Source: a virus (Duplodnaviria > Heunggongvirae > Uroviricota > Caudoviricetes). Taken from it: a DNA stretch of 64,000 bases. Both the position numbers and the translations under genes were made by a program. The first letter of the stretch is position 1; the number at the start of each line of letters is the position of its first letter. Below the pieces are notes generated by a model, which ran no database searches, was not told the DNA's origin, and worked only from the letters and a program-made list of their open reading frames with translations. The DNA lies in IMG/VR virus record IMGVR_UViG_3300031414_000001, positions 240,437-304,436 of that record; one strand, written 5' to 3'. This document shows, one piece after another, positions 24,325-48,237 of this stretch.

Positions 24325-24354
24325 TTTGTTTCTCTCCGTTGTTTCAGTACTGAT

Positions 24355-24383: not shown

Positions 24384-24395
24384 CCCCTAATTTGA

Positions 24396-24704
24396 TTAAT
24401 CCAGTAAGCCCATACGTTCAGCAACCTGCCAGGCTTCTGATCCGTACACTGGTTCAATCTCATTCCAGTGATCAGGGTTCAAGCTTCCACCAGCGGCGAG
24501 ATGTTTCTCAATTGCCAGGATACGGCGATTTTGTTTCTCACGTACTGCCTGTTGTTCGTGGAGTTCGTGAGTCAGTTCGCTGGAAGTTTTCAGGGCAATG
24601 CGTCGGCCTGTTTCTGTATCTTGACCAACGATGTAAAAGCTTGATGCTTCTTGACCGTTATACTCTACCAGGTCATGACGTACAAAAAAGGTTAATCTAG
24701 ACAT
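24396..24704 (-). CDS. hypothetical protein (102 aa; start set at MSRLTFF with AGGAAGTAAACA RBS)
   Basis: ORF 24396..24818; the internal Met has a strong SD directly downstream of promoter +1. Confidence 0.45.
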   Translation of the reverse strand: MSRLTFFVRHDLVEYNGQEASSFYIVGQDTETGRRIALKTSSELTHELHEQQAVREKQNRRILAIEKHLAAGGSLNPDHWNEIEPVYGSEAWQVAERMGLLD

Positions 24705-24737
24705 TTGTTTACTTCCTGTTGTTGTTTCAGTACTGAT

Positions 24738-24766
24738 AGAATAGCAAAGGGGCTGAACTATGTCAA
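24738..24766 (-). promoter_or_regulatory. early sigma70 promoter in terminator hairpin (TTGACA-N17-TATTCT)
   Basis: Reverse complement reads GGGGTTGACAtagttcaGCCCCtttgcTATTCTatcagtactgaaac. The 8-bp stem GGGGUUGA/UCAGCCCC contains the -35. Confidence 0.6.
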
Positions 24767-24781
24767 CCCCTAATTTGTACT

Positions 24782-25624
24782 TTATGCGGCATCTACTAAT
24801 GAAGTTGCCAACTGCCACAATTTAGAGTTAAAGTCTAAATTCTTGTCGATGTTAGTCACGCCGCGAGTAGTACGGCGACGGCCTGTATCACTGCGGCCTG
24901 ATTGTCCACCAGCCATTACGTTCTGTTGTACGATGTTAAACGTGCTGTAAAGGCTGTTGCTGTTGCGATCAGTACTGTTCACGTTGCGAGTATTCAACAA
25001 CTGTTCAGGACTGTACAGGAAGTTGATCCCTTCGCCTGGTTTTGGTAAACCTTCTTTAGCGAAGTAACCAGCAACGGCAAATGATTTGCGTTGTTTGTCG
25101 TCTAACTGGATGCGTGACATTTCGCCTTTGTAACGGTCGATAAGGTCGAAGTCTTTAACAACCTCGAATACACCTTCGATCACGTCATCCATGATGTTCT
25201 GGCCTTTGTGATAGATCTTAGTGTTGCTTTGGGTGTTACCCATTACCAGACCATTAGCACAAACAAAACGGAATTGCCCGCTAATCAACTGATAAGCACT
25301 TGTGCCATCGTTGGCGTTAAGAAGGATGATTTCATTTGCTTCACCTTCTTTCATACCAGGTTGACGGAAACGCAACATATGCTTTGTGAATTCGCGTTTT
25401 GATTCATCGCGTACACGTGCCTGAGTTGCGAACATCGGGAAATAGTTTTCCTGAGCAAGACGATCAATCACGTCGATAGTTGGCACTGGTGCGAAACGTG
25501 CTGAACGTGATTCGTGTGCATCGTACTGGAATACGGACGGCACTACTTCCAGGAGTTCAGTTCTGGTCAATGGACGGTTTTCTTTGATAGCTTTACCGTT
25601 GATACCCTGATACATTTTAATCAT
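24782..25624 (-). CDS. DUF932-like phage/plasmid-associated protein
   Basis: 280 aa; segment QLISGQFRFVCANGLVMG resembles the conserved core of the DUF932 family. Confidence 0.4.
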   Translation of the reverse strand: MIKMYQGINGKAIKENRPLTRTELLEVVPSVFQYDAHESRSARFAPVPTIDVIDRLAQENYFPMFATQARVRDESKREFTKHMLRFRQPGMKEGEANEIILLNANDGTSAYQLISGQFRFVCANGLVMGNTQSNTKIYHKGQNIMDDVIEGVFEVVKDFDLIDRYKGEMSRIQLDDKQRKSFAVAGYFAKEGLPKPGEGINFLYSPEQLLNTRNVNSTDRNSNSLYSTFNIVQQNVMAGGQSGRSDTGRRRTTRGVTNIDKNLDFNSKLWQLATSLVDAA

Positions 25625-25700
25625 GATTCGTTCCTCTCGTTTGGTGTAAGGTAATAGTACTGGATTCTGTTTATGTTGTCCAGTACTATTTTGAATTTAA

Positions 25701-25940
25701 TTACTCGATTCCGCCATCTACAGGCCAGCAATCACGAATGAATTTAGAACGGGATGGATCATCTTTCAGTGTCTTTGTCAAGAGTACTGCGTGATCTTCC
25801 GCACCTTTTTCAGTACTGAATTCCGCACCAGGTTGATAGTGCTGGCGGTTGTTGTCGTGGTCGAGGGCTACAACGTCGAACGGGCGAGCGTCGCTATCAG
25901 ACCAGACTCTTACTTTAAATTCAATTCCTGATTTTGCCAT
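25701..25940 (-). CDS. hypothetical protein (79 aa; start at MAKSGIEF after ~170-nt leader)
   Basis: The ORF track's longer N-terminus is translated leader; the RBS sits before the internal ATG. Confidence 0.45.
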   Translation of the reverse strand: MAKSGIEFKVRVWSDSDARPFDVVALDHDNNRQHYQPGAEFSTEKGAEDHAVLLTKTLKDDPSRSKFIRDCWPVDGGIE

Positions 25941-26115
25941 TTTGTTTTGCCTCTGTGCTGTTTCAATAACTTCATTATACGTTATCCTGGTTTGAATGCA
26001 AGTACTATTCACGTTTTAATTTATAAATTTTTTACTGGACAGATATACAGTACTAATAGATTTTGAATACAGTACGCCACCCTATAGGGTTAGTCAGTTT
26101 CGCCTGATTGATAAC

Positions 26116-26144
26116 AGTATAGCAAGAAGGGCTGAACGGGTCAA
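26116..26144 (-). promoter_or_regulatory. early sigma70 promoter in terminator hairpin (TTGACC-N17-TATACT)
   Basis: Reverse complement reads GGGTTGACCcgttcagcccttcttgcTATACTgttatcaatcaggcgaaa. Confidence 0.55.
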
Positions 26145-26519
26145 CCCTTTCTATTAAAATATTTGCATTTCTTTTGCTACTGCCTGGCTGTAATAATAAA
26201 GAGCATACCAGGGCTTGACAAACGTTGTGGTGCAGTTATTAATATCTGCGTGGTTAAGTGTTAGTACTCCGTGTTTAGAATACAATCTAACTTTGCCGTT
26301 TCTGAATGATTTAAGTTCACGCATGATTAGAATACCAGGAAAAAGGAAAGTACTGTAACAATTGCGAGGATCACAATTTGTTCCATATGTTTAGCTTCAA
26401 TGTGTGCTAAACTTTCTTCTGTATACTCTACAACATATTTTTCTTTCATGTTTGCTTCCTCTGTTTCAGTACTGATAGGATAGCAAAAGGGCTTAACCTA
26501 AGTCAAGCCCTATTTTGAA

Positions 26520-27098
26520 TTAAAGATAAGTTACTGACGCTTCACGCGGATCTTCTTCAAAATCCATATCATTAGCGATGATAGTTTGTTTAACTTGTTC
26601 ATCGCTGATAAGATCGTAATACGCTGTATCTAAATCAGAGTAGTATTCTTTACCCTGTTCAGTGATAAAGCCGTCGATTTCTTTTTCAAGTTCTTCATAC
26701 ATTTCAGACTTTTTAGAAGTCATTTCGATATACCATTCACCGGACAACTCTGCTGCTGTAGTGTTGTAGTGAACATAACGTGAACCGTGATCGCGGCGTA
26801 CTTTACAGGTAATATCTTTAATGCGAATATGCTCATGTAAGCAACGGTAATGCGTCCAGCGTTTTTGTGAACGTAAAAACTTCTCAATATCCACATTTCC
26901 AGCCGTGAAACTTGCACCGTCGCCTTGTGAACAAAACCCGGAGTACTGAGATTCTACGTCTTCAAAACCTACAGATTCCAGGATTGAATGATGTTTTTCT
27001 TTTATCCAATCATTCCAATCAGGATAATCGACGTTAATATCTCTGTTCAGTTCAATTGCTTTAGCTTGCTGTTCTGCGTTCAGTTCGTTAAATTTCAT
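26520..27098 (-). CDS. hypothetical acidic protein (192 aa), possible anti-restriction-like
   Basis: Acidic, Asp/Glu-rich early protein; start set at MKFNELN. Assignment is speculative. Confidence 0.4.
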   Translation of the reverse strand: MKFNELNAEQQAKAIELNRDINVDYPDWNDWIKEKHHSILESVGFEDVESQYSGFCSQGDGASFTAGNVDIEKFLRSQKRWTHYRCLHEHIRIKDITCKVRRDHGSRYVHYNTTAAELSGEWYIEMTSKKSEMYEELEKEIDGFITEQGKEYYSDLDTAYYDLISDEQVKQTIIANDMDFEEDPREASVTYL

Positions 27099-27343
27099 TT
27101 TGATATTCTCGCTTAAATGATTAAGGCCATTCCCTAATCCATGTAAAAGATTATACAGTACTGAACGAATAACGCAAGTACTATTCACGTTTTAATTTAT
27201 AAATTTTTACCTGTACAGATATACAGTACTTTCTAGTACTAAAATCCATTGGACGCAACTTGCCACCCTATAGGGTTAGTCCATTTCGCTGGATTGAATA
27301 CAGTATAGCAAAAAGGGCTAACCGAAGTCAACCCTTTATTTTC

Positions 27344-27565
27344 TTAATGCATCAGTTTATGATCAGCCAGTACGAACGGCGTAGCCAGTGGGCTAACCTT
27401 ATCGGCGATGATCTGGCGGTCGAATCCACCCAGGAAGTTATTCAGTAGGAGGACGCCCATCAGGTTAAACTGATTGAACTCACAGATCTGCCCGATCACT
27501 TCATTAGCTTTCAGGTCTGCTTCTGTTGGTTCAGTGAACAATTCTCTTAACATATCTTCAATCAT
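27344..27565 (-). CDS. hypothetical small protein (73 aa)
   Basis: Intact ORF. Confidence 0.4.
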   Translation of the reverse strand: MIEDMLRELFTEPTEADLKANEVIGQICEFNQFNLMGVLLLNNFLGGFDRQIIADKVSPLATPFVLADHKLMH

Positions 27566-27637
27566 GGTAGTGCCCTCGTTTGTTGTCAGTACTGATAGGA
27601 TAGCAAAGGGGCTGAACTATGTCAACCCCTTATTTGA

Positions 27638-28357
27638 TTAATATTCGTATCCGTGTTTTACTGCTGCTGATTTACGAATTTTCATAGAACGATCCAGCAC
27701 TACTTGAGCACGAGTTAGGAAACCAGCACTGACCGCCGCTTCACGTACTAACCAGTAAGAATGTGGATTCGTTTCGTCGTAAAATTTCCATTTAGTTGCT
27801 TCATGGAATGCGATCACACGATAAGCCCAGGCACGTTCTGAACCTTTAACATCTGCCTCTTGTGGTTCGCAGAATGCAGGAACATCGGCCAGGAAATAAT
27901 CATAGCGACGGTTATCATCACCGTGTGTACGTTTGTTGATATATTCAATATCGCTTAACAGAGCATCGCGGATCTTATCCTGGTTCAGTACTGAACAGGT
28001 GAGATTAAACATAGTAACAAGGCTTAACAGTTTGCCCCAGCGTTGTGACAGTTTAGAAACTAAATCATTGCGGTTATTGGTACGGTCAAGTCCTTTTTGA
28101 TCAGCACGTACACGCACAAACATCGGGCTAAAGAATGTGCTATATAAATCAGTATTCAGTACTTTACGCAGTACTGAAACACGTTTTTCAATGAAGATAT
28201 TTTCATTGTTAACAATGTCAAAGATTGAATTACCAGTGCCGCCAACGGAATTAAACAGAATTTCATCGGACAGGTTATTGAAGTCGATCACGTTGTTTCT
28301 TGCCAGTACTGCCAGTGATTCAGAATTCAGAGTTGCCAGGTTGATATTCATGTTCAT
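27638..28357 (-). CDS. hypothetical protein (239 aa)
   Basis: Long intact ORF. Confidence 0.5.
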   Translation of the reverse strand: MNMNINLATLNSESLAVLARNNVIDFNNLSDEILFNSVGGTGNSIFDIVNNENIFIEKRVSVLRKVLNTDLYSTFFSPMFVRVRADQKGLDRTNNRNDLVSKLSQRWGKLLSLVTMFNLTCSVLNQDKIRDALLSDIEYINKRTHGDDNRRYDYFLADVPAFCEPQEADVKGSERAWAYRVIAFHEATKWKFYDETNPHSYWLVREAAVSAGFLTRAQVVLDRSMKIRKSAAVKHGYEY

Positions 28358-28590
28358 TTTTAGATTCTCGCTTAATTAAAGGTTTTGATTTTTTTGAGAC
28401 TGTTTGCTGTCTCGATGTGTATATATTATCAAATACAAAACATAACGCAAGTGCTTTTTGATATTATTTTTAAATTCTTTTTATTTTTAAAGTACTGACG
28501 GAACTACCCACCCTATAGGGTTAGTCAGTTTCGCCTGATTGATAACAGTATAGCAAAAGGGGCTAACATATGTCAACCCCTGGAATGAAA

Positions 28591-28941
28591 TTAATTACAA
28601 TGATAAACGATCTTGACAGGAAGATAAACGCCGTGTTGTGGTACTGACGTTTTCATGGTAAACATAGATCCGGCCTGTTCGATTGTGCCAGTATCATTCC
28701 GATAGATACTGTAATCTTTCCAGAATTGAACTACGTCCATATCGGTATCTTTCACCTGAACTTCGATCACTGGTTCAGTAACAGTGATTTGAATAATATG
28801 TTCAGGAGCGGCATTATCAACTTTCTGATAGTTACCGTTGCCAGTACCTTGATACAGTGTGTAGCTAGGGCAAGTATAAACCTGAGTACCAGCGTTCGCA
28901 CATGAAGCCACCAGCAGACCTAACAGAAGAAGTTTTCTCAT
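28591..28941 (-). CDS. putative outer-membrane lipoprotein (signal peptide + lipobox LVASC)
   Basis: MRKLLLLGLLVASCANA: type II signal peptide with Cys at +1; 116 aa. Confidence 0.55.
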   Translation of the reverse strand: MRKLLLLGLLVASCANAGTQVYTCPSYTLYQGTGNGNYQKVDNAAPEHIIQITVTEPVIEVQVKDTDMDVVQFWKDYSIYRNDTGTIEQAGSMFTMKTSVPQHGVYLPVKIVYHCN

Positions 28942-29012
28942 TTCGTTGTACCTTGTTTGTTTTCAGTACTGATAGAATAACAAAGGGCTTAACCAAAGTC
29001 AAGCCCTAATTT

Positions 29013-29480
29013 TTAAACTGATTGTATTGCGTTCATGATAGCTTCATACTTATCATAAACATCATCTGATTCTGTGTTATGTGTTGCGTGAAATAATGCC
29101 TTGACAGCAGCTTGATATTGTGCTGGTGGCACGGCCTTTAATGCTGATGTAATATCTTTAATGTACGTTGGTTCGTCTTTGAACATAGTACGTAAGACAT
29201 TAGGCAGATCTTTAATAGATGGTTCTGGTGTAGGTTCGCGGCCTGGCATAAGTCCTAACGATTTAAAGTACTTTAACTTTTCATCTGGATTCATGCGGGA
29301 AGTGTCAACGCCTTGACTTGGCATTGTGTTTAGCTTACCTTGTAGCCCTGTTCCCTGGTTACGTGATCCGCGATCACCTTGTCCAGCGTCGTGACTGTTT
29401 GAACGTCTATTACTGTTTGACCACTTATCGGCGTGACCTGCCATTGTTGCATCTTTCTTGTTAACGAATTTTCCTGGCAT
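29013..29480 (-). CDS. hypothetical protein (155 aa)
   Basis: ORF directly downstream of a strong promoter. Confidence 0.45.
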   Translation of the reverse strand: MPGKFVNKKDATMAGHADKWSNSNRRSNSHDAGQGDRGSRNQGTGLQGKLNTMPSQGVDTSRMNPDEKLKYFKSLGLMPGREPTPEPSIKDLPNVLRTMFKDEPTYIKDITSALKAVPPAQYQAAVKALFHATHNTESDDVYDKYEAIMNAIQSV

Positions 29481-29509
29481 AATAAAAAAATCCCCTATGA
29501 CTATAGTTT

Positions 29510-29539
29510 ATTATAATCATATTTAGGGGATTCTGTCAA
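29510..29539 (-). promoter_or_regulatory. strong sigma70 promoter (TTGACA-N17-TTATAAT)
   Basis: Reverse complement reads cgTTGACAgaatcccctaaatatgaTTATAATaaactatag. Confidence 0.6.
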
Positions 29540-29778
29540 CGCCTAGCGATGAAATTGTTATATTGCTCATGAGTCATTAGGTTAAGTTTGCCATTGTCAA
29601 TCACAATACGTTCATTGCGTGATACTTCTATCACACTGAACAATCCACAATTCAGCTTTCGCGGTCTGATATTACCGCCATTAAATTCTCTCACAACACG
29701 AATAGCCTTGTCAAGTACTTTAGTCTGAGCTTTAAAATGTATTCGTAATTGTGTATCATCTACCATTATCTTTTTCAT
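29536..29778 (-). CDS. hypothetical protein (80 aa; start at MKKIMVDD)
   Basis: The internal Met follows the CAGGGGG/CCCCCUG terminator hairpin and an RBS. Confidence 0.4.
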   Translation of the reverse strand: MKKIMVDDTQLRIHFKAQTKVLDKAIRVVREFNGGNIRPRKLNCGLFSVIEVSRNERIVIDNGKLNLMTHEQYNNFIARR

Positions 29779-29828
29779 TGATACACCCCAGGAATAAACA
29801 GGGGGCATATAACCCCCTGTATCGCATT

Positions 29829-30179
29829 TTAAGAGACTTTAGCGAGATGGTTAGCCAACCGTACCGCCGTCATATTGCGACGCCATGAAACACGTACAGG
29901 CTTGTTATTTGGCGTTTTCAGTACTTGCTCGCCGATGATACCTGGCCGCTGACTTGTGATCACTTCGGCATCCTGTAGTACCTTCCATTGATCGTGGAGG
30001 TTCTGCGTTTCCTGATAAGCAGGAGAAAGAAGTGTTGCTTCGTCTGGTACTTCCACCAGCACCGCCCAACGCTCACCAGTTGCGGCATCTTTGCCAAAGT
30101 CTTTGAGCTTACCGTTCAGTACTTCAACGTTAGCACGAGCGAGAGTTCTGGTAGCGAAGTAGTGAGTCTGAATAGTCAT
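29829..30179 (-). CDS. hypothetical protein (116 aa; start at MTIQTHYF with AAGAGGAAAGAAAC RBS)
   Basis: The N-terminal 28 codons of the track ORF are leader. Confidence 0.45.
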   Translation of the reverse strand: MTIQTHYFATRTLARANVEVLNGKLKDFGKDAATGERWAVLVEVPDEATLLSPAYQETQNLHDQWKVLQDAEVITSQRPGIIGEQVLKTPNNKPVRVSWRRNMTAVRLANHLAKVS

Positions 30180-30273
30180 GTTTCTTTCCTCTTTGTGGTT
30201 TACAGGGAAATTTGTTTCCCGTCTGGATGTAAGTACTATAACAGTACTGACTGAGTAACGCAAGTATTATTTT

Positions 30274-30672
30274 TTACTTTACAAAAGCTTTGCCAGTTTG
30301 ATAAATGTCAATAGCTTTCTTTGCCATTTCGTGCCGTTCAACGTTCAAGCCTACAGCTTGCCACAATGCCTGGTACTGTCCGTTATTATTCGCAAGGAAC
30401 ATTACCATATCATTAATGGTCTTTAGCTTGTACTCGCGAGGATGTTCTTTATTATAACGTTCCTTCGCTCGATTGTACAGCCTTTTCATCTTGGGATCTT
30501 TAATAACCCCAAAACCAGAAGTCTTGCCACGGTTGATCATTTCGTTATAATAATCATCCTCTGTGCGGTACTTCCTACGAGCACCGCCACCAGCCGTATT
30601 ACGTGCGATCTCGTCAAGGGCAGTCGCTATGCCTTTCGGCAACCCATAAACATTTTGACCCATTACTTGCAC
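30274..30672 (-). CDS. hypothetical basic protein (132 aa)
   Basis: Intact ORF. Confidence 0.45.
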   Translation of the reverse strand: MQVMGQNVYGLPKGIATALDEIARNTAGGGARRKYRTEDDYYNEMINRGKTSGFGVIKDPKMKRLYNRAKERYNKEHPREYKLKTINDMVMFLANNNGQYQALWQAVGLNVERHEMAKKAIDIYQTGKAFVK

Positions 30673-31025
30673 CTTACAATGATCATGCCACCGCTGGCTT
30701 TTTCATCATCCATAAAGATTTTATAACCAGACAAATAATCGTCAATGTCCAGCACTCGCCGCCCTTCAATTGTATCACCATAACGAGATGATTTCAATAC
30801 TGATTTCGACACTTTAAACGAGCCGTTGTATTCATCACGGCTGTTACGTTCAAAATCATTGAATGAACATTCCAGGTTATCAGCCTTGTCAGTACTGTTA
30901 GTACTAACACCGTTTACAGTTACGTTAATAACTGGAGCAGACTTGACAGATTCAACATATCGACCTACATTCAGACCAACAGCGAAAGTAGTAGCAGCAA
31001 TGGCGATAACAGCGATTCTTTTCAT
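30663..31025 (-). CDS. secreted/periplasmic protein with N-terminal signal peptide (120 aa)
   Basis: Start at MKRIAVIAIAATTFAVGLNVG with ACGGAGAA RBS. The track ORF's MLIECEYFIM prefix is a repeated leader, not protein. Confidence 0.5.
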   Translation of the reverse strand: MKRIAVIAIAATTFAVGLNVGRYVESVKSAPVINVTVNGVSTNSTDKADNLECSFNDFERNSRDEYNGSFKVSKSVLKSSRYGDTIEGRRVLDIDDYLSGYKIFMDDEKASGGMIIVRCK

Positions 31026-31216
31026 TTTGATTCTCCGTTCAGTTGATGTAATCATTATAAAGTACTCGCATTCAATAAGCAAGTACTTTTGATAATGTTT
31101 ACTCGCAAGTGTAGCTATTGCCAGATTGACCCATTATCACCGTACAGTTATTATTTGAATACGTGACAGTACAACCACGTAAAGCAAAGAATACTACGGC
31201 GGCGATAAGTATAAAC

Positions 31217-31417
31217 TTAAGCATTGGCTAACTCCTGGTTATATGTTACCATCCACGCTTTTTCGTGGGCTTTAAACATCTTAGCAAGATCAAGATCCAT
31301 CTTGCGGAAATCGTGGTTATGTTCCCACTGTCTAGCACCTTTCAAGTACTTAGCACGGCTTTCACGGCTTTCACGTGCTGCCATAAGTGGGAAAGGAATT
31401 GCTGGCCCGATGAACAT
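31217..31417 (-). CDS. hypothetical protein (66 aa; start at MFIGPAIPF, ACGGAGGG RBS)
   Basis: The internal Met has a near-perfect SD; upstream codons are conserved leader. Confidence 0.4.
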   Translation of the reverse strand: MFIGPAIPFPLMAARESRESRAKYLKGARQWEHNHDFRKMDLDLAKMFKAHEKAWMVTYNQELANA

Positions 31418-31559
31418 ATTGCTACCCTCCGTGCGATTCACCATGAACCGCTTCGATGTAATAATAGTACTACACACCAATAACGAAAGCAAGTACTATT
31501 TTATAAAATGCAAAAGAAAAAGCCCCAATTAAGGGGCTTGATTTATTCAGTACTTTGTG

Positions 31560-32429
31560 TTACTTCTGGCCTGGCAGAGAAACACCAGTCAGGGAACTGT
31601 TAGGCACAACAGTAGTAGGGCTAATACCGTTCCACGTGGTGGCGTAGGTATACGCTACGAGAGTATCACCAGCCTGTTTCAACGCTTCGCCTTTGGCACG
31701 GATTGCCGATGCTTCTGCGTCGCCTTTCGCCTTGATACCGTTCGCCTCTGCTACCAACTGAGCATACTTAGAATCGGCATCAGCTTTCGCATTAGTCAAC
31801 TGGATCTGAGAAGTAATTTTAGCTTTTTCCCATTCCTGCTGTGACTGTTCCACGGCTACCTGTGCCGTCATACGAGTTTCAACCGCTTTATCATAAGCTG
31901 GCGAGAAAGACAAGCCCTCGATCTGGATGCTGGAGATCGTTACAGGTTCGTTCTTCATTGCCTCTTTTACGGCCTTGTTAACATCAGCCACCAGCCGTGT
32001 GCGATCCTGTACAGCACTGATCGCTGTATACTGTCCGAACACGTTTTCCAGGGCTTGCGGAATCTGGCGATCAATAACACGTGCGATCATCGCTTCAACA
32101 GTGTTATACTTCTTATACAGATCCTCGACCTGGCCAGGCGTCACGTTGAACGACACGGAAACCGCCATATCTGCTGGCTGCTGATCGCGACTGTACGCCT
32201 GGAGTTTATCCCAACGGCGTGACTCGCCCGTTACGGAAATATCCTTAGTACTGGTAACGAATGGCATAACCAGATGGAAACCAGGCTGAGCCACTTCTAC
32301 GAATTTACCGTTTCGCAGTACTACAGTACGCTCTGTTTCTTGCGTGGTGAATGACGACGCGATAGCCGACACCAGGATCACCAACGCACCAAAACCAACC
32401 AGACCCCAGGAGAAATATTTCTTTGACAT
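31560..32429 (-). CDS. SPFH/band-7 (HflK/C-prohibitin-like) membrane protein
   Basis: N-terminal TM (LVGFGALVILVSAIASSF). SPFH-type core (VAQPGFHLVMPFV...QIPQALENVFGQYTAISAVQDR...) and a C-terminal coiled-coil-like A/E/K-rich region. Confidence 0.7.
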   Translation of the reverse strand: MSKKYFSWGLVGFGALVILVSAIASSFTTQETERTVVLRNGKFVEVAQPGFHLVMPFVTSTKDISVTGESRRWDKLQAYSRDQQPADMAVSVSFNVTPGQVEDLYKKYNTVEAMIARVIDRQIPQALENVFGQYTAISAVQDRTRLVADVNKAVKEAMKNEPVTISSIQIEGLSFSPAYDKAVETRMTAQVAVEQSQQEWEKAKITSQIQLTNAKADADSKYAQLVAEANGIKAKGDAEASAIRAKGEALKQAGDTLVAYTYATTWNGISPTTVVPNSSLTGVSLPGQK

Positions 32430-32438
32430 AGTGTTACC

Positions 32439-32633
32439 TCATGTTAATTTACCGGATGAATTATACAGGAAAGATGGAATATCTTTCTTGCTTAAATCTA
32501 CTACGAACGATGGATCTACTTCCTTACAATGTTCAATTACTCTTTCCATTGTCAACTTCGGTGCATCAGGACGTTCACGCTTACGCTCGTCAAGATACAA
32601 AGCATGTACTGGATTGATTGGCTGAATTCTCAT
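32439..32633 (-). CDS. hypothetical small protein (64 aa)
   Basis: Intact ORF. Confidence 0.4.
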   Translation of the reverse strand: MRIQPINPVHALYLDERKRERPDAPKLTMERVIEHCKEVDPSFVVDLSKKDIPSFLYNSSGKLT

Positions 32634-32855
32634 TTAAAAGTACTCCCTCGTTTCGATACAATAATAGTACTACACACCGAGCCATCACGCAAGGAATTTA
32701 TTCAAAAACTTTTCCTTGACAACGCCGCTCTGTTCCCCTATAATTACTACATAGACGCGAGAAAGCGGAAACCCCAGGGGGTGGCAAAATGTATCTATAG
32801 GTTAGAAAGCTGTATATAAAAACAGTACTGGATATTTCACCAGTACTTTATGTTT

Positions 32856-33155
32856 TTAGCTGAAAATGTAACGTGATCCGCCGAAGTAATCAACGTTGAC
32901 CATAACAGCTTTATCTGTTACAATCGTGTGTTGCGTAGTCCAGCCAATCAGGTTAGTACCATCGAATAAGGCCATATGACCATAACCATATTCGACCAGT
33001 GCTGTAAAGTCGCCTTTTTCTTCAACGACACGCCAGGCATAGGGGGAACCGTCTTTCAGCCACAACGCACAATCTGAATAATCAGGACTGAGCTTATGCT
33101 CTTTGTCAGAAAGTACTTTTGCGACTTCTGCCATCAGTACTGCTAACTTATCCAT
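32856..33155 (-). CDS. hypothetical protein (99 aa; start at MDKLAVLM, GAGAGGATAGACAA RBS)
   Basis: The track ORF's MLIECEYFIM prefix duplicates the 31050-31100 leader sequence. Confidence 0.45.
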   Translation of the reverse strand: MDKLAVLMAEVAKVLSDKEHKLSPDYSDCALWLKDGSPYAWRVVEEKGDFTALVEYGYGHMALFDGTNLIGWTTQHTIVTDKAVMVNVDYFGGSRYIFS

Positions 33156-33233
33156 TTGTCTATCCTCTCGCTTAATGTGTAACTTCATTATAAAGTACTC
33201 GCATTCAATAAGCAAGTACTTTTGATAATGATT

Positions 33234-33422
33234 TTACGCCGTGCGGATCACTGTGATATTAGTATCAATATCAATTGATGTTCCCACTTCCAGATCGATG
33301 ATAGCACACAATTCATCGTTGGTCAAATCTGGTACAGTACTGATAACATCCAGGAGATTTAACCGATGATCAGTGTTATCATCGTTGCCGATAGTGTATT
33401 CACGTTTGACCATCTGGATCAT
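33234..33422 (-). CDS. hypothetical small protein (62 aa)
   Basis: Intact ORF. Confidence 0.35.
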   Translation of the reverse strand: MIQMVKREYTIGNDDNTDHRLNLLDVISTVPDLTNDELCAIIDLEVGTSIDIDTNITVIRTA

Positions 33423-33628
33423 GCCGGAACCTCTTGCGTCGATTCTTCCCAGGAAGATTTAACCATCGGCGTTTGCCCGCTTTTTTTCCAACGGGCAATC
33501 TCTTGCTCCGCGTCGTGGCGTGTATCATGTGCTGATACATACGTACCGCAAAAACGAATTACGAATTGCTTTTTCGGTGCACCAGTAAACTCACCTGCTA
33601 CGTTGTAACGACGATCTTTTTGAGCCAT
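33419..33628 (-). CDS. hypothetical small protein (69 aa)
   Basis: Intact ORF with 4-nt overlap. Confidence 0.4.
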   Translation of the reverse strand: MAQKDRRYNVAGEFTGAPKKQFVIRFCGTYVSAHDTRHDAEQEIARWKKSGQTPMVKSSWEESTQEVPA

Positions 33629-33715
33629 GATAACTTCCTCTTAATTAATGGTTATTGCGTTTCAGTAAGTTCATTATATAGTACTCGCAGAAGAAAGCAA
33701 GTACTATTAATGGAT

Positions 33716-33952
33716 TTACAAAGAAATAACTTTGTGATACTCGCCATGCGTCAAATCAGACACATATACTTCATTGCTGTTATTCAGCTTTTCAGTACTG
33801 GTGATCACGTTGCCGTGATACGTTTCATTCGCCCAGGTTTGGATCTGCTGGCTGACTTCTTCCAGATTGTCAGATCCTGCCAGTACTAACAGTTTATCAG
33901 ATCCAGCAATCGCCGTGCCAGTACTGCTTACAATGACTTCGAATTGTGGCAT
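33716..33952 (-). CDS. hypothetical small protein (78 aa)
   Basis: Intact ORF. Confidence 0.4.
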   Translation of the reverse strand: MPQFEVIVSSTGTAIAGSDKLLVLAGSDNLEEVSQQIQTWANETYHGNVITSTEKLNNSNEVYVSDLTHGEYHKVISL

Positions 33953-34224
33953 GATATATCCTCTTAATTAAATTCAACAGACAACATTATAACAATAAAG
34001 ATAAACAAAAGAAACTCTACTTTACGACTCATTTCTTTACCCTCGTTTGCCCTTCCATGTAATACATATTACCAGATTCAAAAACAAAAGCAAGTACTTT
34101 TTATGATTTAATTTATAACTTTTTTTGAACGGATCTTGCCACCCTATAGGGTTAGTCAGTTTCGCCTGATTGATAACAGTATAGCAAAAAGGGATTGAAC
34201 TTGTCAACCCCTAATTTTAGTACT

Positions 34225-34530
34225 TTACAAATCACGCACCGCTGTAGTATGCGTAATGTATGGGGCAGAACCGCCGATCAATTCTACCTTTGCCATCAGG
34301 GATATATGATCCCCTGCTGTTGGTAATGCTAACGCTTCCTGTACTGTGATCACTTCACCGAAAGAGTACTGATATTGTACAAAGGCTAACCAGGTATTAA
34401 AGATCTCGCCCGGTTTCCATCCGTGCTGTACTAAGCACACATTATCAATTACAATCGGTTTACCTGTATGATCTCTCGTAGTACAGGTATAAGTAAATGC
34501 TTTCGCGAAGTTATCAATGTTATCAGACAT
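34225..34530 (-). CDS. hypothetical protein (101 aa)
   Basis: Intact ORF downstream of a conserved leader module. Confidence 0.45.
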   Translation of the reverse strand: MSDNIDNFAKAFTYTCTTRDHTGKPIVIDNVCLVQHGWKPGEIFNTWLAFVQYQYSFGEVITVQEALALPTAGDHISLMAKVELIGGSAPYITHTTAVRDL

Positions 34531-34771
34531 TTTCTAATGTTACCTTAAGAGATTGTGTCATACGATTTCGCATTGCTTTTAGTACCATGCGACACGCTAA
34601 CACTTTGCCTTTATCATCCAGACGTTTAAAGCCTGGCCGTTTCATTGTATGGGATTGTAATTGAGTCCAGTTATCGACCCTTTGCCCCTTGCGATAGATT
34701 ATACAATGAATCTTGTCAGAAGTACAAGTAAAAATTACAACTAATCTTTTAGTACTATAGAATAGATCCAT
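34523..34771 (-). CDS. hypothetical protein (82 aa)
   Basis: Intact ORF. Confidence 0.4.
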   Translation of the reverse strand: MDLFYSTKRLVVIFTCTSDKIHCIIYRKGQRVDNWTQLQSHTMKRPGFKRLDDKGKVLACRMVLKAMRNRMTQSLKVTLENV

Positions 34772-34819
34772 AAAGCCCCTACAACACGTTTTAAGAGGGG
34801 GTATATTGCCCCCTATAGG

Positions 34820-35197
34820 TTACACGTCTACAGTATCATAAACATTACCTGATGCGATCCAGACGCTGAATTTTGGCATCTTATCCCATTCAGCCATAGT
34901 CAGACCGAGATCGTGGAGAACGTTAGTATTTGCCATACCTGGTACATTGTGAGCAGTACTGTACAACTTTCCATTGTACTGATACGCTAAACACATTTTA
35001 TGCTGATTGACAACGCACAACATAGAAGTAATCAGGGTAGTACAGGCGAAACGTTCCCGTACTAATGACAATTCAGTACTGATGCGTTTATTCAATCTGT
35101 CAACTTCTTTATTACATTCAGCTTTTGTTTTCCCCATCATTTCGATATGGGAAAGTGCACCTACAATGTCAGCCTGGATTGTGAAGATCTTATTCAT
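34820..35197 (-). CDS. hypothetical protein (125 aa; start at MNKIFTIQ, AAAGGAGTAAACC RBS)
   Basis: The internal Met has an excellent SD. Confidence 0.45.
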   Translation of the reverse strand: MNKIFTIQADIVGALSHIEMMGKTKAECNKEVDRLNKRISTELSLVRERFACTTLITSMLCVVNQHKMCLAYQYNGKLYSTAHNVPGMANTNVLHDLGLTMAEWDKMPKFSVWIASGNVYDTVDV

Positions 35198-35388
35198 GGG
35201 TTTACTCCTTTCGTTTAGTGTGAATACATAGTAAGTCATTACAGCAGTTAAAGCAAGTACTATTTGAGTTTTAATTTATAATATTTTCTGGATAGATCTC
35301 GCCACCCTATAGGGTTAGTCCATTTCTCTGGAGTGATTACATAGTACTATAAAAGGGATTGAATAGTCAACCCCTCTTTTGTAAAGAT

Positions 35389-35571
35389 TTAAACTTCTTT
35401 CCAGCGTCCATTATAGAACGTATGCGTTTCAATATACATGTTGTTAATGTTGCTGATATATCCTACACTATCAGCAGCCCGCCGTGTAGCAGCATTCTTT
35501 GCCCCACGTTCGGACTTTGCCTGGATAGGGTAAGCCTTACTACCGATCCCGATTGCGTATTGTTTAGCCAT
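35389..35571 (-). CDS. hypothetical small protein (60 aa)
   Basis: Intact ORF. Confidence 0.35.
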   Translation of the reverse strand: MAKQYAIGIGSKAYPIQAKSERGAKNAATRRAADSVGYISNINNMYIETHTFYNGRWKEV

Positions 35572-35749
35572 GCTTCACCGCCTTGATTGCGTTAACCGCA
35601 ATAATTCCTTTACATTCGCGAGGCAAACGGCATTCACATAACCAACGGGAAATACCGCCAACATAACGAGCCGTAGGGCATTTGTTCGCGTTCTCCTGAG
35701 TGAACAAAGGCCATTCAACATTACCCCAGGTAGGTCTAACAGTTTTCAT
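35564..35749 (-). CDS. hypothetical small Cys-rich protein (61 aa)
   Basis: Intact ORF; CxxxxxxxxxC..CxC pattern. Confidence 0.35.
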   Translation of the reverse strand: MKTVRPTWGNVEWPLFTQENANKCPTARYVGGISRWLCECRLPRECKGIIAVNAIKAVKHG

Positions 35750-35826
35750 TTTTAAAACCTCGTTTGCTTAAGTGATAACTCATTGTAAAGTACTTGCCAG
35801 GATTAAGCAAGTACTTTCGAAATGAA

Positions 35827-36213
35827 TTATAGATCTTTTTTGCGTTTTACGTCTGCCAGGTTTTCAGATACTGGAATATCATGTTCACGACAAAAACGGG
35901 ATAACGTGCCACAATCAGGAACTGGATAAGTACAGGCAGCATCGAACAACGCCAGGGCAGTTTGATCGAAACAACGCTCATAGCCATATTGGAATGTATC
36001 TTGTGCCAGGTCGATCCACACTGTACCATCTTCTAACGGGCGATTGTACACGTTCGCTACAAGCTCGTTAGCACGTTCTACAGGCACCAGGACGCTAACA
36101 TATACAGAATGATATGTGTTACCATCACCACGGTTAAACCAGCGTTTCGCGGTCATAGTGACGGCGTGAACATCGGCCAGGTTAACAGTACTGAAAATAG
36201 TTCTATTGGTCAT
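35827..36213 (-). CDS. hypothetical protein (128 aa)
   Basis: Intact ORF. Confidence 0.45.
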   Translation of the reverse strand: MTNRTIFSTVNLADVHAVTMTAKRWFNRGDGNTYHSVYVSVLVPVERANELVANVYNRPLEDGTVWIDLAQDTFQYGYERCFDQTALALFDAACTYPVPDCGTLSRFCREHDIPVSENLADVKRKKDL

Positions 36214-36220
36214 AATAATC

Positions 36221-36391
36221 TCACTTAATGTTATTGGCTGCTACAAAGTCAGGGTGTTTAGATTCAAACCACTGCATGACTTCTATTCTATCAGTACCTA
36301 CACCGAAGTGCAAGAACTCTTTTTCGATTTCATCATCATTGTTAACGGGAACCAATGAGAACAATTCCCACAACTTCAATAACTCCGCCAT
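36221..36391 (-). CDS. hypothetical small protein (56 aa, below ORF-track cutoff)
   Basis: Reverse complement reads GGAGTAAACAGC-ATG MAELLKLWELFSLVPVNNDDEIEKEFLHFGVGTDRIEVMQWFESKHPDFVAANNIK. Confidence 0.4.
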   Translation of the reverse strand: MAELLKLWELFSLVPVNNDDEIEKEFLHFGVGTDRIEVMQWFESKHPDFVAANNIK

Positions 36392-36486
36392 GCTGTTTAC
36401 TCCTGAGTGATTACCCTATACCGCTTATTATACAGATTACTCATTTACGATCAAGTACTATCTCGTTTTAATTTACTTTATTTTAA

Positions 36487-36512
36487 AACAAAAAATGCCC
36501 CTCGATCTAGGG
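36487..36512. terminator. bidirectional-looking hairpin terminator (GCCCCUcgaucuAGGGGC)
   Basis: 6-bp GC stem flanked by an A-run upstream and an AT-run downstream. Confidence 0.45.
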
Positions 36513-37072
36513 GCATTAATTGGTGAATAAGGTTTCCTTTCAGAACGTCTATAATGGCACTAATGCGATTATAGAACTTCACACCTACGCGGCAATTTAA
36601 TATAAGTAGTTTGTTTATAAAATTGAGTACCGGATAATCTTTCAGTACTAACCACAATCACCCTGTAGATGTGCTTTCGCTTTGTGGTTCCTGGTATAGA
36701 CTTACCTTGTGTGCTATACGTCTTAGGGTTCTACGTACTGCCACCAGGATATCAGCCTGATGGTTCAAATCTTAACTCCTTTGGCGGCTCGCCGTGTCGT
36801 TTCGATGTAGCTATATTATCATAACCAGCGAACCGATCAAGCGATTTAATTACTTTTTTTCGATTCTTTTTCCTTGCTTTTCTTTTTCAGTACTGGCATA
36901 ATATCTACATACCAGCGAAATGGGAGACTCTAGAGAGTGGCAAGTTGCGTCTAAAATTTATATAAAAAGCAATGGACGGATCTTGCCACCCTTTTGGGTT
37001 AGACCATTTCGCTGGATTGATAGTACTTTAACATAAGGGGCTAACCGAAGTCAACCCCTGTTTTGTAAAGAT

Positions 37073-37414
37073 TTACATTGCTTCGATGACTAATTTTAAT
37101 TCATATGAACTAAAATGTTTCTTGAATAATTGTTCAGCCTGGGCTTTACTTTCGGCGTCAATTATGATTGAGTCTTCACCGCGATCCGTGCCGTAGGTTA
37201 TCGCGAACCCACGACGCACGATTTCTTTTGTTGGCAGGTGAATAGTACCGTTACGCAACAATTGCCCTTCTGGATCATTTGCGATTGCCTGGAGATCTAC
37301 TTCAACGTAAAGTTCATCGTTGAACAATTCCACAATCGGATCAATGTTCCCTCTTTTGTGTGCGATTTGTTCCAGTTGGAAAAGTACGCCTTTCAGTTCG
37401 CTTAATCTCATCAT
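37073..37414 (-). CDS. hypothetical protein (113 aa)
   Basis: Intact ORF. Confidence 0.45.
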   Translation of the reverse strand: MMRLSELKGVLFQLEQIAHKRGNIDPIVELFNDELYVEVDLQAIANDPEGQLLRNGTIHLPTKEIVRRGFAITYGTDRGEDSIIIDAESKAQAEQLFKKHFSSYELKLVIEAM

Positions 37415-39410: not shown

Positions 39411-40379
39411 AATATGTACCTTCTTAAAAGTGATTGATTAATTTGTTTGTCTGATTCGCTCTTGCGTTTCAGTGATTACATCTTACTACGTTTCGTTTCT
39501 TTCGGTCAAGGACTTTTTCAACTTTCTAGAAACTTTTTTTCGTTTCATCTCCAGGCGGTAGATAGGACGCTAACAGTTAGTTAGCCTTTATAACGCTACG
39601 TTGCCTTTGTCGGTCATACGCTGTAACAGTACTATCTATTCTAGCCCTGTTACCGTTTCCTATCATCCGGCGAACCTTACCGCCTTTCGATGATTGACAT
39701 TCTACACTACTCAATCTAGCAGTCAAGTACTTTCTCAAATCTTTTTCGCGTTTCCGCTTAAGTCATTGTTTCAGTACTGAATGCCAGGTTTTTAAAGAGC
39801 GGTGTTTCGTGTCGTTGGAGCTATACTATCATACAGAACGAACCATGCAAGGACTTTTTCACTTTTTCATTAAAATAGTTTCGTTCCTCGCTTTCCTTCA
39901 TTATATGCACTTCCTGGTTCCTGTATCGAGTTCTAAGCCCTTTAACAGTACTAACATACACATTCACCAGGGATCGAACTACAAACGCTTAAACGGCTTT
40001 ATATTACGTATAAGGAAGGGCTAAAAAGTTTTGTAAAGATTGTAGAAAGTACTGGACAGCAGATCCCGAATAAGGCATAATAACTACATAGACGCGAGAA
40101 AGCGGAGACCCCAGGGGGTGGCAAGTTGCGTCCAAAATTCGTATAAAAAACTACAGACGGATCTTGCCACCCTCTAGGGTCGCCCATTTCGCTGGTGTGT
40201 GGATATAGTACTATAATCCGGCCAGGTCTGTCAAATTTATTTTTATTGAAAAAAGTACTTGCATTCGTCGCTCAGTATGATAATATAGCTCTGTCAACAC
40301 GAAAAGACAGCTTTCGATTCTGCCTGGTACTAACCAGACGCGGAAGGGGAGCTAATGGAAAAATGACAGAAAAAAACCA

Positions 40380-43502: not shown

Positions 43503-43511
43503 GGAGAGAAT

Positions 43512-48236: not shown

Positions 48237-48237
48237 G

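Follow-up and report, generated by a model that had tools for sequence, protein, structure and literature searches.

A probable prohibitin-type SPFH membrane protein encoded by a Mimasvirus-like jumbo myophage

The 64,000-nt stretch of DNA analysed here (the window) comes from a Mimasvirus-like (CBB/Kaldavass-type) jumbo myophage and carries a conserved gene, under purifying selection, for a 289-aa SPFH protein. The product has the full architecture of cage-forming SPFH proteins, i.e., an N-terminal helix, an SPFH core, a helix of ~80 residues and a conserved tail. Its gene is the distal member of a compact two-gene unit that runs from a predicted sigma-70-type promoter through a small gene (orf64) and the SPFH gene to an intrinsic terminator (Table 1). 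On balance, we favour the reading that this is a prohibitin-type SPFH protein which would be made early and whose copies would build a homo-oligomeric cage on the inner membrane of the host, facing the periplasm. The identity proposed in the initial annotation, a phage-encoded SPFH/band-7 membrane protein, is supported.

Table 1. Features of the SPFH gene and its surroundings (positions in the window)
Feature	Position	Strand	Basis or remark
SPFH gene CDS, 289 aa, ATG start	31560..32429 (stop codon 31560-31562)	minus	ORF list
N-terminal hydrophobic signal-anchor helix, codons 5-27, MSKK in front	32349..32417	minus	hydropathy, AF2, charge bias
SPFH (Band 7) domain, codons 28-199	31833..32348	minus	Pfam, AF2, Foldseek
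Single long Ala/Lys-rich helix, codons 177-256	31662..31901	minus	AF2 helix, mostly pLDDT >90; composition
C-terminal tail, codons 263-289	31563..31643	minus	invariant W266, G268, P271, P276 (71-sequence alignment)
Shine-Dalgarno GAGG, 7 nt 5' of the SPFH ATG, overlapping the orf64 stop codon	32437..32440	minus	sequence reading
orf64, 64-aa soluble protein, directly 5' of the SPFH gene	32439..32633	minus	ORF list
Predicted sigma-70-type early promoter TTGCGT-N17-TACTAT, 5' of orf64	32664..32692	minus	regex scan
Intrinsic terminator AAGCCCC-TTAATT-GGGGCTT plus T run, 21 nt past the stop codon	31512..31539	minus	terminator scan
GGTAAATTA, initially read as a late-like motif	32445..32453	minus	within the orf64 coding sequence (codons ..G-K-L-T-stop)

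Gene call, domain architecture and membrane anchor

The 289-aa ORF is a real gene. The ORF list, the GAGG site and an independent gene call with the same boundaries on an ENA metagenome contig all agree with the coordinates first given for it, and the number of chance ORFs of this length expected in the window is ~3e-4 (estimated from stop-codon frequency at 38.5% GC). Against the orthologues of Kaldavass, XbC2 and CBB, dN/dS lies between 0.04 and 0.10. The SPFH core, for which a search against PF01145 had been suggested, was recovered by Pfam, by a profile search of PDB sequences and by fold search, so that the refutation named at the outset, a domain search that misses the fold, does not apply. 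The Band_7 profile (PF01145) matched at E=2.3e-30 (106.4 bits, the cut-off being 23.6, over positions 2-171 of the 176 in the profile), PHROG_200 at E=1.9e-50, and the profile of the protein found HflC (3e-17), prohibitin (1e-14) and HflK (3e-13) among the PDB sequences. The AF2 model has a mean pLDDT of 84.3, rising to ~90 in the beta/alpha SPFH core. Foldseek matched this model to prohibitin, HflK/C, erlin and stomatin (E 1e-10 to 6e-15), the top matches being the human prohibitin complex, HflK/C and erlin with E of 6e-15 to 1e-13 over ~250-290 aligned columns; 63 PDB chains matched at E<=1e-3, and the best 50 of these 63 were all SPFH-family or vault.

The C-terminal part of the protein had been described as an Ala/Glu/Lys-rich, coiled-coil-like tail. 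The long AF2 helix and its richness in Ala and Lys bear this out in part, whereas 'Glu-rich' is wrong, because residues 200-262 comprise 24% Ala, 13% Lys and only 6% Glu. The ~80-residue helix region aligns over nearly its full length with the PHB1/2 and HflK/C chains, and its counterpart in the SPFH cages of known structure is the coiled-coil segment that forms the wall. The tail beyond the helix has a pLDDT of 41-55 in the monomer model; by analogy with the HflK/C and prohibitin structures, it may act as the 'cap' of a cage.

The N-terminal transmembrane helix of the initial annotation is also seen here: Kyte-Doolittle windows of 19 residues starting at positions 5-11 score 1.9-2.1 (maximum 2.1), and AF2 places a helix at residues 3-23. 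A charge-bias heuristic (more positive N-terminal side) favours an N-in/C-out orientation in 68 of 71 family members, the bias being small in the window protein itself (net charge +3 on the N side, +1 on the C side). A possible signal-peptidase site, A-I-A|S, lies at residues 22-25 and might release the SPFH domain. Its -3 residue varies among orthologues (F in CBB) and the relatives in the family use an uncleaved anchor; we therefore judge the helix to be an uncleaved anchor and cleavage to be less likely. The label 'lipoprotein', which PHROG_200 and Pharokka attach to such proteins, was rejected since the protein has no Cys. None of the 71 homologues has a lipobox within its first 45 residues, and LipoP was negative for CBB_29.

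Relatives and family placement

Orthologues are found in a series of published jumbo phages: Erwinia phage Kaldavass (XPP59872.1, 98% identity), XbC2_16 (93%), CBB_29 (AMM43594.1, 80%), GAP32_025 (49%), a protein of Serratia phage BF named 'SPFH domain / Band 7 family' (49%), pEa_SNUABM_47_00021 (49%) and fHe-Yen9-04 g012 (46.5%). They are 285-291 aa long, share the architecture of the window protein with nothing essential different, and group in a single clade at 100% NJ bootstrap support. The order small ORF, SPFH gene, terminator is kept near the left genome end in Kaldavass, XbC2, CBB, GAP32 and Eneladusvirus. CBB, GAP32 and Eneladusvirus also encode, two genes 5' of the SPFH gene, a membrane protein with two TM helices (CBB_27, GAP32_023); it was searched for in the window and is missing from its lineage. 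The orthologues bear differing annotations ('lipoprotein', 'structural protein', 'hypothetical', 'SPFH'). The kind of gene is already known, as the SPFH annotation exists in published Eneladusvirus relatives, and the window copy adds little new because near-identical orthologues have already been deposited and annotated.

Phage-borne SPFH membrane proteins are not confined to this group. They include Kayvirus MbpS, ORFs of the T4-like phages 44RR, Aeh1 and RB43, gp200 of Vi01-like phages and a protein of the N4-like phage GIB1, which have only 20-25% identity to the window protein and lie in other genomic contexts. PHROG_200 groups many of them. SPFH proteins are common across phages and giant viruses, with 438 phage records matching at E<=1e-3 and further matches in BFVD. 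Phage SPFH membrane proteins without assigned function have been noted since 2006 and papers up to 2026 call their role unclear; the literature searched on phage-encoded SPFH proteins (exclusion, defence, jumbo phages) holds annotations and speculation but no demonstrated function.

The closest non-phage relatives are 'prohibitin family proteins', many of them on plasmids, with 44-49% identity over the full length. These bacterial and plasmid proteins share the N-terminal anchor, the helix and the W-x-G..P..P tail with the phage protein, yet form a clade separate from the phage proteins. Examples are WP_045340601.1 on the Enterobacter IncFII/IncR plasmid pMB9539_2, WP_011077945.1 near sppA on the Pseudomonas plasmid pCAR1, and further members in Kosakonia and Shewanella. 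Some plasmid copies sit in F-type tra operons in the order traB-x-SPFH-x-traV; others of the family stand alone in chromosomes (e.g., Shewanella). Our search of the literature on prohibitin family proteins and conjugation found no function for these bacterial and plasmid relatives, and a search for a partner gene common to the phage and plasmid loci yielded none, the small ORFs 5' of the plasmid SPFH genes encoding membrane proteins unrelated to orf64.

By sequence similarity, the phage protein is best placed in the bacterial 'prohibitin family' (prohibitin-type SPFH) clade: its identity to PGAP-named prohibitin family proteins is 44-50% over 88-100% of the query, an assignment that stands for similarity to named proteins plus the best fold match. 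That fold match is mitochondrial prohibitin (8rrh_A, E=6e-15, TM 0.61-0.64), aligned over the whole chain. PHB1 and PHB2 are of similar length (~270-300 aa) and ~20% identical to the phage protein; unlike the single-copy phage gene, they are two paralogues that build a eukaryotic hetero-oligomer. The stomatin/NfeD pairs (E. coli QmcA-YbbJ, Pyrococcus PH1511) also have the SPFH fold in common with the phage protein. QmcA faces the cytoplasm, which is opposite to the orientation predicted for the phage protein, and no NfeD-family gene (PF01957) was found among nine neighbouring ORFs (Pfam, E<=0.1). HHpred on CBB_29 had matched the PH stomatin.

'HflK/C-like', as the protein had first been called, fits it only loosely. 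An orthologue of HflK or HflC was rejected on scores far below the NCBIfam cut-offs and on the single copy without a paired paralogue: the equivalog profiles gave 37.6 bits against 159.4 (TIGR01933, HflK) and 23.9 against 134.4 (TIGR01932, HflC), NF008181 gave 27.8 against 660 and NF008259 15.4 against 427. Each related phage genome has one SPFH match except CBB, which has two because the gene lies in its terminal repeat, and a Pfam scan of the neighbouring ORFs gave no Band_7 match, so that there is no K/C-like pair. In common with the phage protein, the E. coli proteins have the SPFH fold, basic residues ahead of an N-terminal anchor, the long wall helix and a compact size; the periplasmic orientation is theirs too, and is predicted for the phage protein. 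The identity is ~20%, a K/C pair faces one gene, and the long N-terminal extension of HflK is missing, the alignment beginning at HflK residue 86. The orthologues thus need a corrected annotation, being neither lipoproteins nor HflK/C orthologues.

These comparisons bear on the initially suggested modulation of host FtsH, considered here as mimicry in which the phage protein replaces or competes with host HflK/C and tunes proteolysis by FtsH directly, to the benefit of the phage. The membership of the same superfamily, the same predicted N-in/C-out orientation and the rank of HflK and HflC as best PDB sequence and profile matches are consistent with such mimicry. So is the presence of proteases of the FtsH family in both of the nearest assemblies of known structure, those of HflK/C and prohibitin. 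Prohibitin associates with the m-AAA protease. However, HflK/C is an obligate hetero-oligomer whereas the phage has one gene, the low identity and the equivalog scores set the protein apart, and it falls in a 'prohibitin family' clade apart from HflK/C, common on plasmids and in some cases within tra operons. The phage moreover appears strictly virulent, and therefore the logic of lambda CII degradation is not transferable. Mimicry of HflK/C is in our view doubtful.

Transcription unit and neighbourhood

The promoter 5' of orf64 shares a repeat family (D13) with a promoter at 31496-31468. In the regex scan, the minus strand between 26 kb and 36 kb carries ~12 promoters that resemble it, with the form (AGTAC)TTGC(T/G)T-N16-17-TAnnAT; on the plus strand, the same form has four matches in the whole window. 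The authors of the CBB and GAP32 studies predicted early genes for the corresponding region of these phages, together with promoters that are RpoD-like and have UP elements. The RNA fold of the terminator has -13.1 kcal/mol (z = -2.3), and the GAP32 record has a rho-independent terminator annotated at the same place, after GAP32_025. Small genes of early type make up the block in which the unit of orf64 and the SPFH gene sits.

orf64 is predicted to be co-transcribed with the SPFH gene; it is conserved in position and fast-evolving. Its orthologues lie directly 5' of the SPFH gene in XbC2 (95% identity), Kaldavass (66%) and GAP32 (GAP32_024, 36%, E=3e-8), and CBB_28 and pEa47_20 hold the same position yet match it weakly. 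No match to orf64 was found in Pfam or PADLOC.

The initial annotation had taken GGTAAATTA for a late-like motif and suggested a scaffold for lysis or assembly proteins. The sequence does contain a TAAAT core and ends 15 nt before the ATG, and such a scaffold would fit with mbpS, an SPFH gene that lies in the lysis module of the distantly related Kayvirus phages. GGTAAATTA lies, however, inside the orf64 coding sequence and occurs twice in the window (both strands together) against ~1.3 occurrences expected from base composition. The motif that truly recurs is GGGTAAATA, with four copies, on the plus strand only, 24-35 nt ahead of the genes for the MLPFPQL paralogues, and GGTAAATTA is unlike it. 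It is also unlike the ATAAATA/TATAAATA consensus, ATAAATA being the late consensus reported for CBB. No T4-type late promoter (TATAAATA or ATAAATA) was found upstream of the SPFH gene, and the minus-strand matches to ATAAATA in the window, at 15672, 19596 and 63103 only, are not near it. We judge GGTAAATTA to be a chance match and no part of the system; the late-gene label was rejected with it. The scaffold suggestion loses its support with the motif, the signals present being an early-type promoter and a terminator. Furthermore, no holin, endolysin or structural gene is nearby, the Kayvirus protein is only ~21% identical, and a late-expressed scaffold driven by GGTAAATTA is very improbable.

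Nine neighbouring ORFs were compared with Pfam in case one of them encoded a partner related to NfeD, to a protease or to lysis, and the only domain recovered was ParE-like, in the ORF at 29536..29808. No PADLOC family was matched at E<=0.01 by the SPFH protein and four neighbours, and the window as a whole gave no match in scans for Rfam families and for tRNAs.

Virion detection and possible roles

Orthologues have repeatedly been detected in virion preparations. In CBB virions purified with PEG, chloroform and CsCl, mass spectrometry identified CBB_29 with eight unique peptides (29.6% coverage), and in the supplementary table of that study it is entered among the structural proteins that CBB and GAP32 have in common, the Rak2 column being blank. 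Mass spectrometry likewise found the Eneladusvirus orthologue in three phages purified on CsCl, where its values are in the range of those for the neck protein in the same table, and more distant SPFH proteins occurred in preparations of RisingSun and Sajous1. An early protein of the inner membrane would not predict detection in purified virions. All four observations would fit a true virion protein, carried inside the particle or bound to it, which acts either at the next infection (e.g., at the inner membrane where DNA enters) or in the structure of the particle. On the other hand, the predicted Sec/YidC-type anchor and the periplasmic orientation fit poorly with capsid assembly in the cytoplasm, and the promoter is early-type without a late motif. 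No homologue at E<1e-20 is present in the Asteriusvirus phages or in Rak2, which places the SPFH protein outside the conserved Rak2-like virion. SPFH cages are stable particles of megadalton size, which could co-purify with phage. Evident non-structural proteins, moreover, are in the same proteomes (ClpP and a methyltransferase in CBB, rIIA and rIIB in Sajous1). We consider a genuine virion protein unlikely; the repeated detection is a loose end that deserves a proper control.

The reading that we prefer is that of an early membrane cage. Host RNA polymerase would transcribe the unit of orf64 and the SPFH gene early in infection, and the protein would insert into the host inner membrane with its N-terminus in the cytoplasm and its bulk in the periplasm, as do HflK/C and mitochondrial prohibitin. 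As its architecture suggests, copies of the protein could then assemble with one another into a ring or cage and so enclose a patch of the inner membrane. Host FtsH may tentatively be named, by analogy, as the leading single candidate for a client, because AAA proteases of the FtsH family are what the relatives of the same topology, HflK/C and prohibitin, surround. Alternatively, the protein might stabilise or protect the inner membrane in a general way while the phage takes over the cell, or it might exclude incoming DNA.

The last two could be joined in an envelope module shared by mobile elements: while the element breaches the envelope, a cage in the periplasm would either keep the inner membrane stable or bar competing DNA from entering, as in superinfection exclusion or entry exclusion. 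The early-type expression signals, which resemble those of T4 imm and sp, would suit such a module, and so would the predicted periplasm-facing location, the presence of the family in small phages, and the many close non-phage relatives on conjugative plasmids, some of them between traB and traV. But no PADLOC defence model was matched, the literature searched reports no exclusion phenotype for any SPFH protein, and many family members are ordinary chromosomal genes, as in Shewanella; we regard such a module as improbable. A variant, to which we give little credence, would link the tra-operon copies with the virion data: the SPFH protein, carried by the virion or made immediately on entry, might form a periplasmic cage around the point of breach in the inner membrane and seal or exclude there, and the copies in the tra operons of F-type conjugative plasmids might do likewise.

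Kaldavass and CBB are cultivable, and they offer a clean, conserved single-gene case for the study of phage SPFH proteins. What would sharpen such a study is that the transcription unit is of early type, that the protein is predicted to face the periplasm and that it is akin to prohibitin-type genes in plasmid tra operons.

Fold and family of the SPFH protein

The SPFH gene occupies exactly the position and has the length (289 aa) that the initial annotation had given it. An ENA metagenome contig encoding an identical protein carries the same gene boundaries, set by an independent gene caller, and matching small neighbours (64, 66, 41, 120 and 129 aa). The open frame is not a product of chance, because only ~3e-4 ORFs of this length are expected in the window (an estimate at 38.5% GC). 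The gene is under purifying selection (dN/dS 0.04-0.10 in unsaturated comparisons). At the N-terminus, the hydrophobic helix noted earlier comes after MSKK (Kyte-Doolittle 1.9-2.1 for 19-residue windows from residues 5-11). The tail had been described as Ala/Glu/Lys-rich, which holds for Ala (24% of residues 200-262) and Lys (13%) but not for Glu (6%).

Pfam Band_7 (PF01145) matched residues 28-199 (E=2.3e-30, 106 bits; cut-off 23.6). Against PDB sequences, the single protein recovered HflK (5e-8) and prohibitin-1/-2 (~1e-6), and a profile of 71 SPFH homologues recovered HflC (3e-17), prohibitin (1e-14) and HflK (3e-13), together with QmcA and stomatin. The AlphaFold2 model built on this alignment (mean pLDDT 84.3) comprises a helix (residues 3-23), an SPFH core (25-175; beta-rich, then alpha/beta), a continuous single helix (177-256) and a low-confidence C-terminal tail; in the tail W266, G268, P271 and P276 are invariant across the 71-sequence alignment. 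Foldseek placed the human prohibitin complex first in the PDB (8rrh_A, E=6e-15, TM 0.61/0.64), followed by HflK/C, erlin-1/2, stomatin, QmcA, flotillin and vault. The model thus shows the complete predicted architecture of SPFH proteins solved as closed rings or cages. The initial annotation would have given up its membrane-scaffold reading had a domain search missed the SPFH fold; since Pfam, the PDB profile and Foldseek all recovered it, this reading stands.

The epithet "HflK/C-like" is correct at superfamily level only. Orthology was rejected: the protein scored 37.6 bits on the NCBIfam HflK equivalog (cut-off 159.4) and 23.9 bits on HflC (cut-off 134.4), is ~20% identical to HflK/C, falls in another clade, and is encoded by a single-copy gene in each related phage genome rather than as a K/C pair. 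A lipoprotein, the label of PHROG_200 (match 1.9e-50), was likewise rejected, as the protein has no cysteine and a lipobox occurs in 0/71 homologues; for CBB_29, the orthologue in phage CBB, the CBB supplementary table gives LipoP negative and TMHMM = 1. A stomatin coupled to NfeD was also discarded (NfeD match in 0/9 neighbours), and PADLOC defence models gave no match to the protein. Annotators should therefore label it neither a lipoprotein nor an HflK/C orthologue.

Distribution among phages and plasmids

At the nucleotide level, the surroundings of the gene share 92% identity with Erwinia phage Kaldavass (366.6 kb) and 90% with 'Xanthomonas' phage XbC2. Orthologues occur in Kaldavass (97.9% identity; annotated 'lipoprotein'), XbC2 (93.1%), Pectobacterium phage CBB (CBB_29, 80.4%; 'structural protein'), Cronobacter phage GAP32 (GAP32_025, 48.9%), Serratia phage BF and Erwinia pEa_SNUABM phages (48.6%; annotated SPFH), and Yersinia phages fHe-Yen9-03/04 (46%). 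In each of these phages it is found in a run of small same-strand genes, 7-14 kb from the left record end, and in CBB this region is within the 22.5-kb terminal repeat. The jumbo-phage proteins form one clade in a neighbour-joining tree (100% bootstrap), apart from bacterial and plasmid sequences, which points to a single ancient acquisition with vertical descent thereafter. No homologue was found at E<1e-20 in Asteriusvirus phages or Rak2, so the gene is accessory within the Rak2-like group. Distant SPFH genes are present in 438 phage records, among them Kayvirus, Vi01-like, N4-like, P1 and Stx phages, and also in giant eukaryotic viruses.

The nearest non-phage relatives are named 'prohibitin family protein' in their sources (44-50% identity, nearly full length). 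Prohibitin-type SPFH genes were found at E<1e-20 in 102 plasmid records, 48 of them typed as conjugative. IncFII/IncR plasmids of Kosakonia and Enterobacter carry the gene within their F-type transfer operon (order traB, 155-aa membrane protein, SPFH, traV), and the gene product is 44-49% identical to the phage protein. In Pseudomonas pCAR1 it lies ~1 kb from a divergently oriented sppA, and in Shewanella the relative is a stand-alone chromosomal gene. A literature search found no paper giving these bacterial and plasmid relatives a function.

Phage SPFH ORFs were tabulated already in 2006 (PMC1524935); the Eneladusvirus paper deals explicitly with precisely this group of orthologues and describes its function as poorly understood (PMC7760394), and a 2026 paper does so for another phage SPFH (PMC13239085). 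The gene is of a known, already annotated kind, with near-identical orthologues in GenBank. Our analysis adds a predicted early two-gene unit, a predicted periplasmic orientation, corrected labels, and the finding that the jumbo-phage clade is monophyletic and related to prohibitin-type genes that are frequent on plasmids and lie within tra operons.

Predicted transcription unit and detection in virions

The initial annotation had seen a late-like motif, GGTAAATTA, before the gene and considered a role in lysis or assembly. This sequence ends 15 nt 5' of the SPFH ATG, within the coding sequence of orf64, the 64-aa gene directly upstream, and its two occurrences in the window compare with ~1.3 expected (calculated), so the motif is dismissed. 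The truly recurrent motif is GGGTAAATA, with four copies, all on the + strand and each 24-35 nt before an MLPFPQL paralogue gene. The late consensus proposed for CBB, ATAAATA (PMC5259590), occurs on the minus strand of the window only at 15672, 19596 and 63103.

Instead of a late or lysis gene, we read an early-type unit of promoter, orf64, SPFH and terminator. Promoters of the form (AGTAC)TTGC(T/G)T-N16-17-TAnnAT number ~12 on the minus strand between 26 and 36 kb, the orf64 promoter among them, versus 4 on the + strand of the entire window. The orf64 promoter and the one at 31496-31468, just 3' of the SPFH terminator, are homologues sharing 72% identity (repeat family D13). In the GAP32 record a rho-independent terminator is annotated at the corresponding site, with promoters of the TTGACA/TATAAT type near it, and for CBB the terminal repeat is predicted by its authors to hold early genes and RpoD-like promoters with UP elements (PMC5259590). 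Because of these signals and predictions, the locus is predicted to be a two-gene early unit.

Features in and around the SPFH locus and in related plasmids
Feature	Position	Strand	Detail
SPFH CDS	31560..32429	-	ATG start, 289 aa, ORF list
Shine-Dalgarno GAGG	7 nt 5' of SPFH ATG	-	read from sequence
orf64	32439-32633	-	64-aa gene directly upstream of SPFH
GGTAAATTA	32445-32453	-	inside last orf64 codons (..S-G-K-L-T-stop)
Putative promoter TTGCGT-N17-TACTAT	32692-32664	-	upstream of orf64
Predicted terminator, GC-rich hairpin + T run	31539-31520		directly after SPFH stop; -13.1 kcal/mol, z = -2.3
Cassettes (examples)	35814, 35260, 34097, 33704, 33219, 32692, 31496, 31086, 28450, 27181, 26005	-	
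Plasmid prohibitin-type SPFH genes	L004/L005 6001-6891; L010 4950-5834; L011 4962-5843		

orf64 shares 95% identity with its XbC2 counterpart, 66% with that of Kaldavass (L001 7431-7619; the adjoining SPFH protein, 98%) and 36% with GAP32_024, while its resemblance to CBB_28 and pEa47_20 can barely be made out; it keeps its position but evolves much faster than the SPFH protein. No domain match was found for orf64.

Throughout the small-gene block at ~24000-37100 (-), intergenic regions are repeated cassettes (families D1, D3, D4, D9, D13 and D14), each combining a hairpin of the ACCCTATAGGGT type with an A/T-rich UP-like stretch and an AGTACTTGC(T/G)T-N16-17-TAnnAT promoter; one family is a 131-nt repeat in 7 copies. 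They resemble the promoter-early stem-loop (PeSL) cassettes known in T4-type phages.

Proteomic data raise the question of whether the protein belongs to the virion. CBB_29 was detected by ESI-MS/MS (8 unique peptides, 29.55% coverage) in PEG-precipitated, chloroform-extracted, CsCl-banded CBB virions, and the CBB supplementary table lists it as a structural protein common to GAP32, not Rak2. In Eneladusvirus, three phages purified in CsCl yielded the orthologue, at values resembling those listed alongside for the neck protein, and distant SPFH proteins were seen in RisingSun lysate and Sajous1 preparations. However, an exported, periplasm-facing protein would be hard to package into a capsid assembling in the cytoplasm, the promoter is of early type, and other Rak2-like phages lack the gene. 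Moreover, the proteomes include evident non-structural proteins (ClpP and a methyltransferase in CBB, rIIA/rIIB in Sajous1), and SPFH cages, being large and stable, could co-purify with phage. We therefore consider true virion association quite improbable.

The same puzzle of early promoter versus virion detection is posed by a 155-aa ORF at 29013-29480 (-), which has a 12/12 sigma-70 consensus promoter (29539-29510, -) inside the early-type block. It is orthologous to a Kaldavass 'virion structural protein' (92%) and to CBB_38 (51%), which was MS-detected in CBB virions and is listed as common to GAP32 and Rak2 structural proteins. A 90-aa ORF at 29536-29808 (-) carries a ParE-like toxin domain (PF24732, E=2.8e-11, above cut-off).

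Predicted topology, possible function and neighbouring elements

Basic residues stand before the hydrophobic helix of the SPFH protein, and TTQETERT after it is acidic/neutral. Across the 71 aligned homologues, net charge averages +2.3 in the N-flank and -0.27 in the C-flank, and the N side is more positive in 68/71, the margin being small for the window protein alone. By the positive-inside rule, this predicts an N-in/C-out protein with its SPFH domain in the periplasm. HflK/C is N-in/C-out, and prohibitin has an equivalent orientation. Residues 22-25 (A-I-A|S) form a possible cleavage site; its -3 position is F in CBB and variable elsewhere, and because it is not conserved an uncleaved N-terminal anchor is favoured.

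We infer that the protein would be expressed early in infection, insert into the inner membrane facing the periplasm, and homo-oligomerise into a cage isolating a membrane patch. FtsH, proposed in the initial annotation, is the most defensible single candidate for the client, because both same-topology relatives partner with FtsH-family proteases; we hold this only tentatively, given the ~20% identity to HflK/C and the different clade. Membrane stabilisation and exclusion functions are comparably plausible, in view of the early signals and the kinship with tra-operon genes.

Antisense to neighbouring minus-strand genes lies a perfect sigma-70 consensus, TTGACA-N17-TATAAT (32716-32744, +), followed by a conserved GAAAGCGGAnACCCCAGGGGGTGGCAA and a terminator-like hairpin (32824-32847). 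This element (32716-32858, +) has related copies at two further places on the + strand, around 40060-40180 and 36890-37000. Of the 2-kb query, only this stretch of ~110 nt is conserved, at 80-98% nucleotide identity, in distant jumbo phages, namely E. coli Asteriusvirus, Salmonella Munch/7t3, Yersinia fHe-Yen9-03 and Serratia BF. Other copies have GGGTGGCAAG paired with a CTTGCCACCC located downstream; the pair in Munch is GGGTGCGGA and TCCGCACCC, apparently through a compensatory change. The element had no Rfam match; it could represent a small RNA or a structured leader.

On the + strand, 41472-53654 and 59446-60084 hold 12 paralogous genes whose products start MLPFP(Q/I)L..YGN and differ at the C-terminus (Kelch beta-propeller, RCC1-like and ConA-like lectin modules). 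Their counterparts are the Kelch and RCC1 proteins described in CBB, GAP32 and 121Q, and GGGTAAATA, upstream of 4 of the 12, is a candidate late promoter. These paralogues look like a swappable-adaptor family, possibly of fibres or whiskers.
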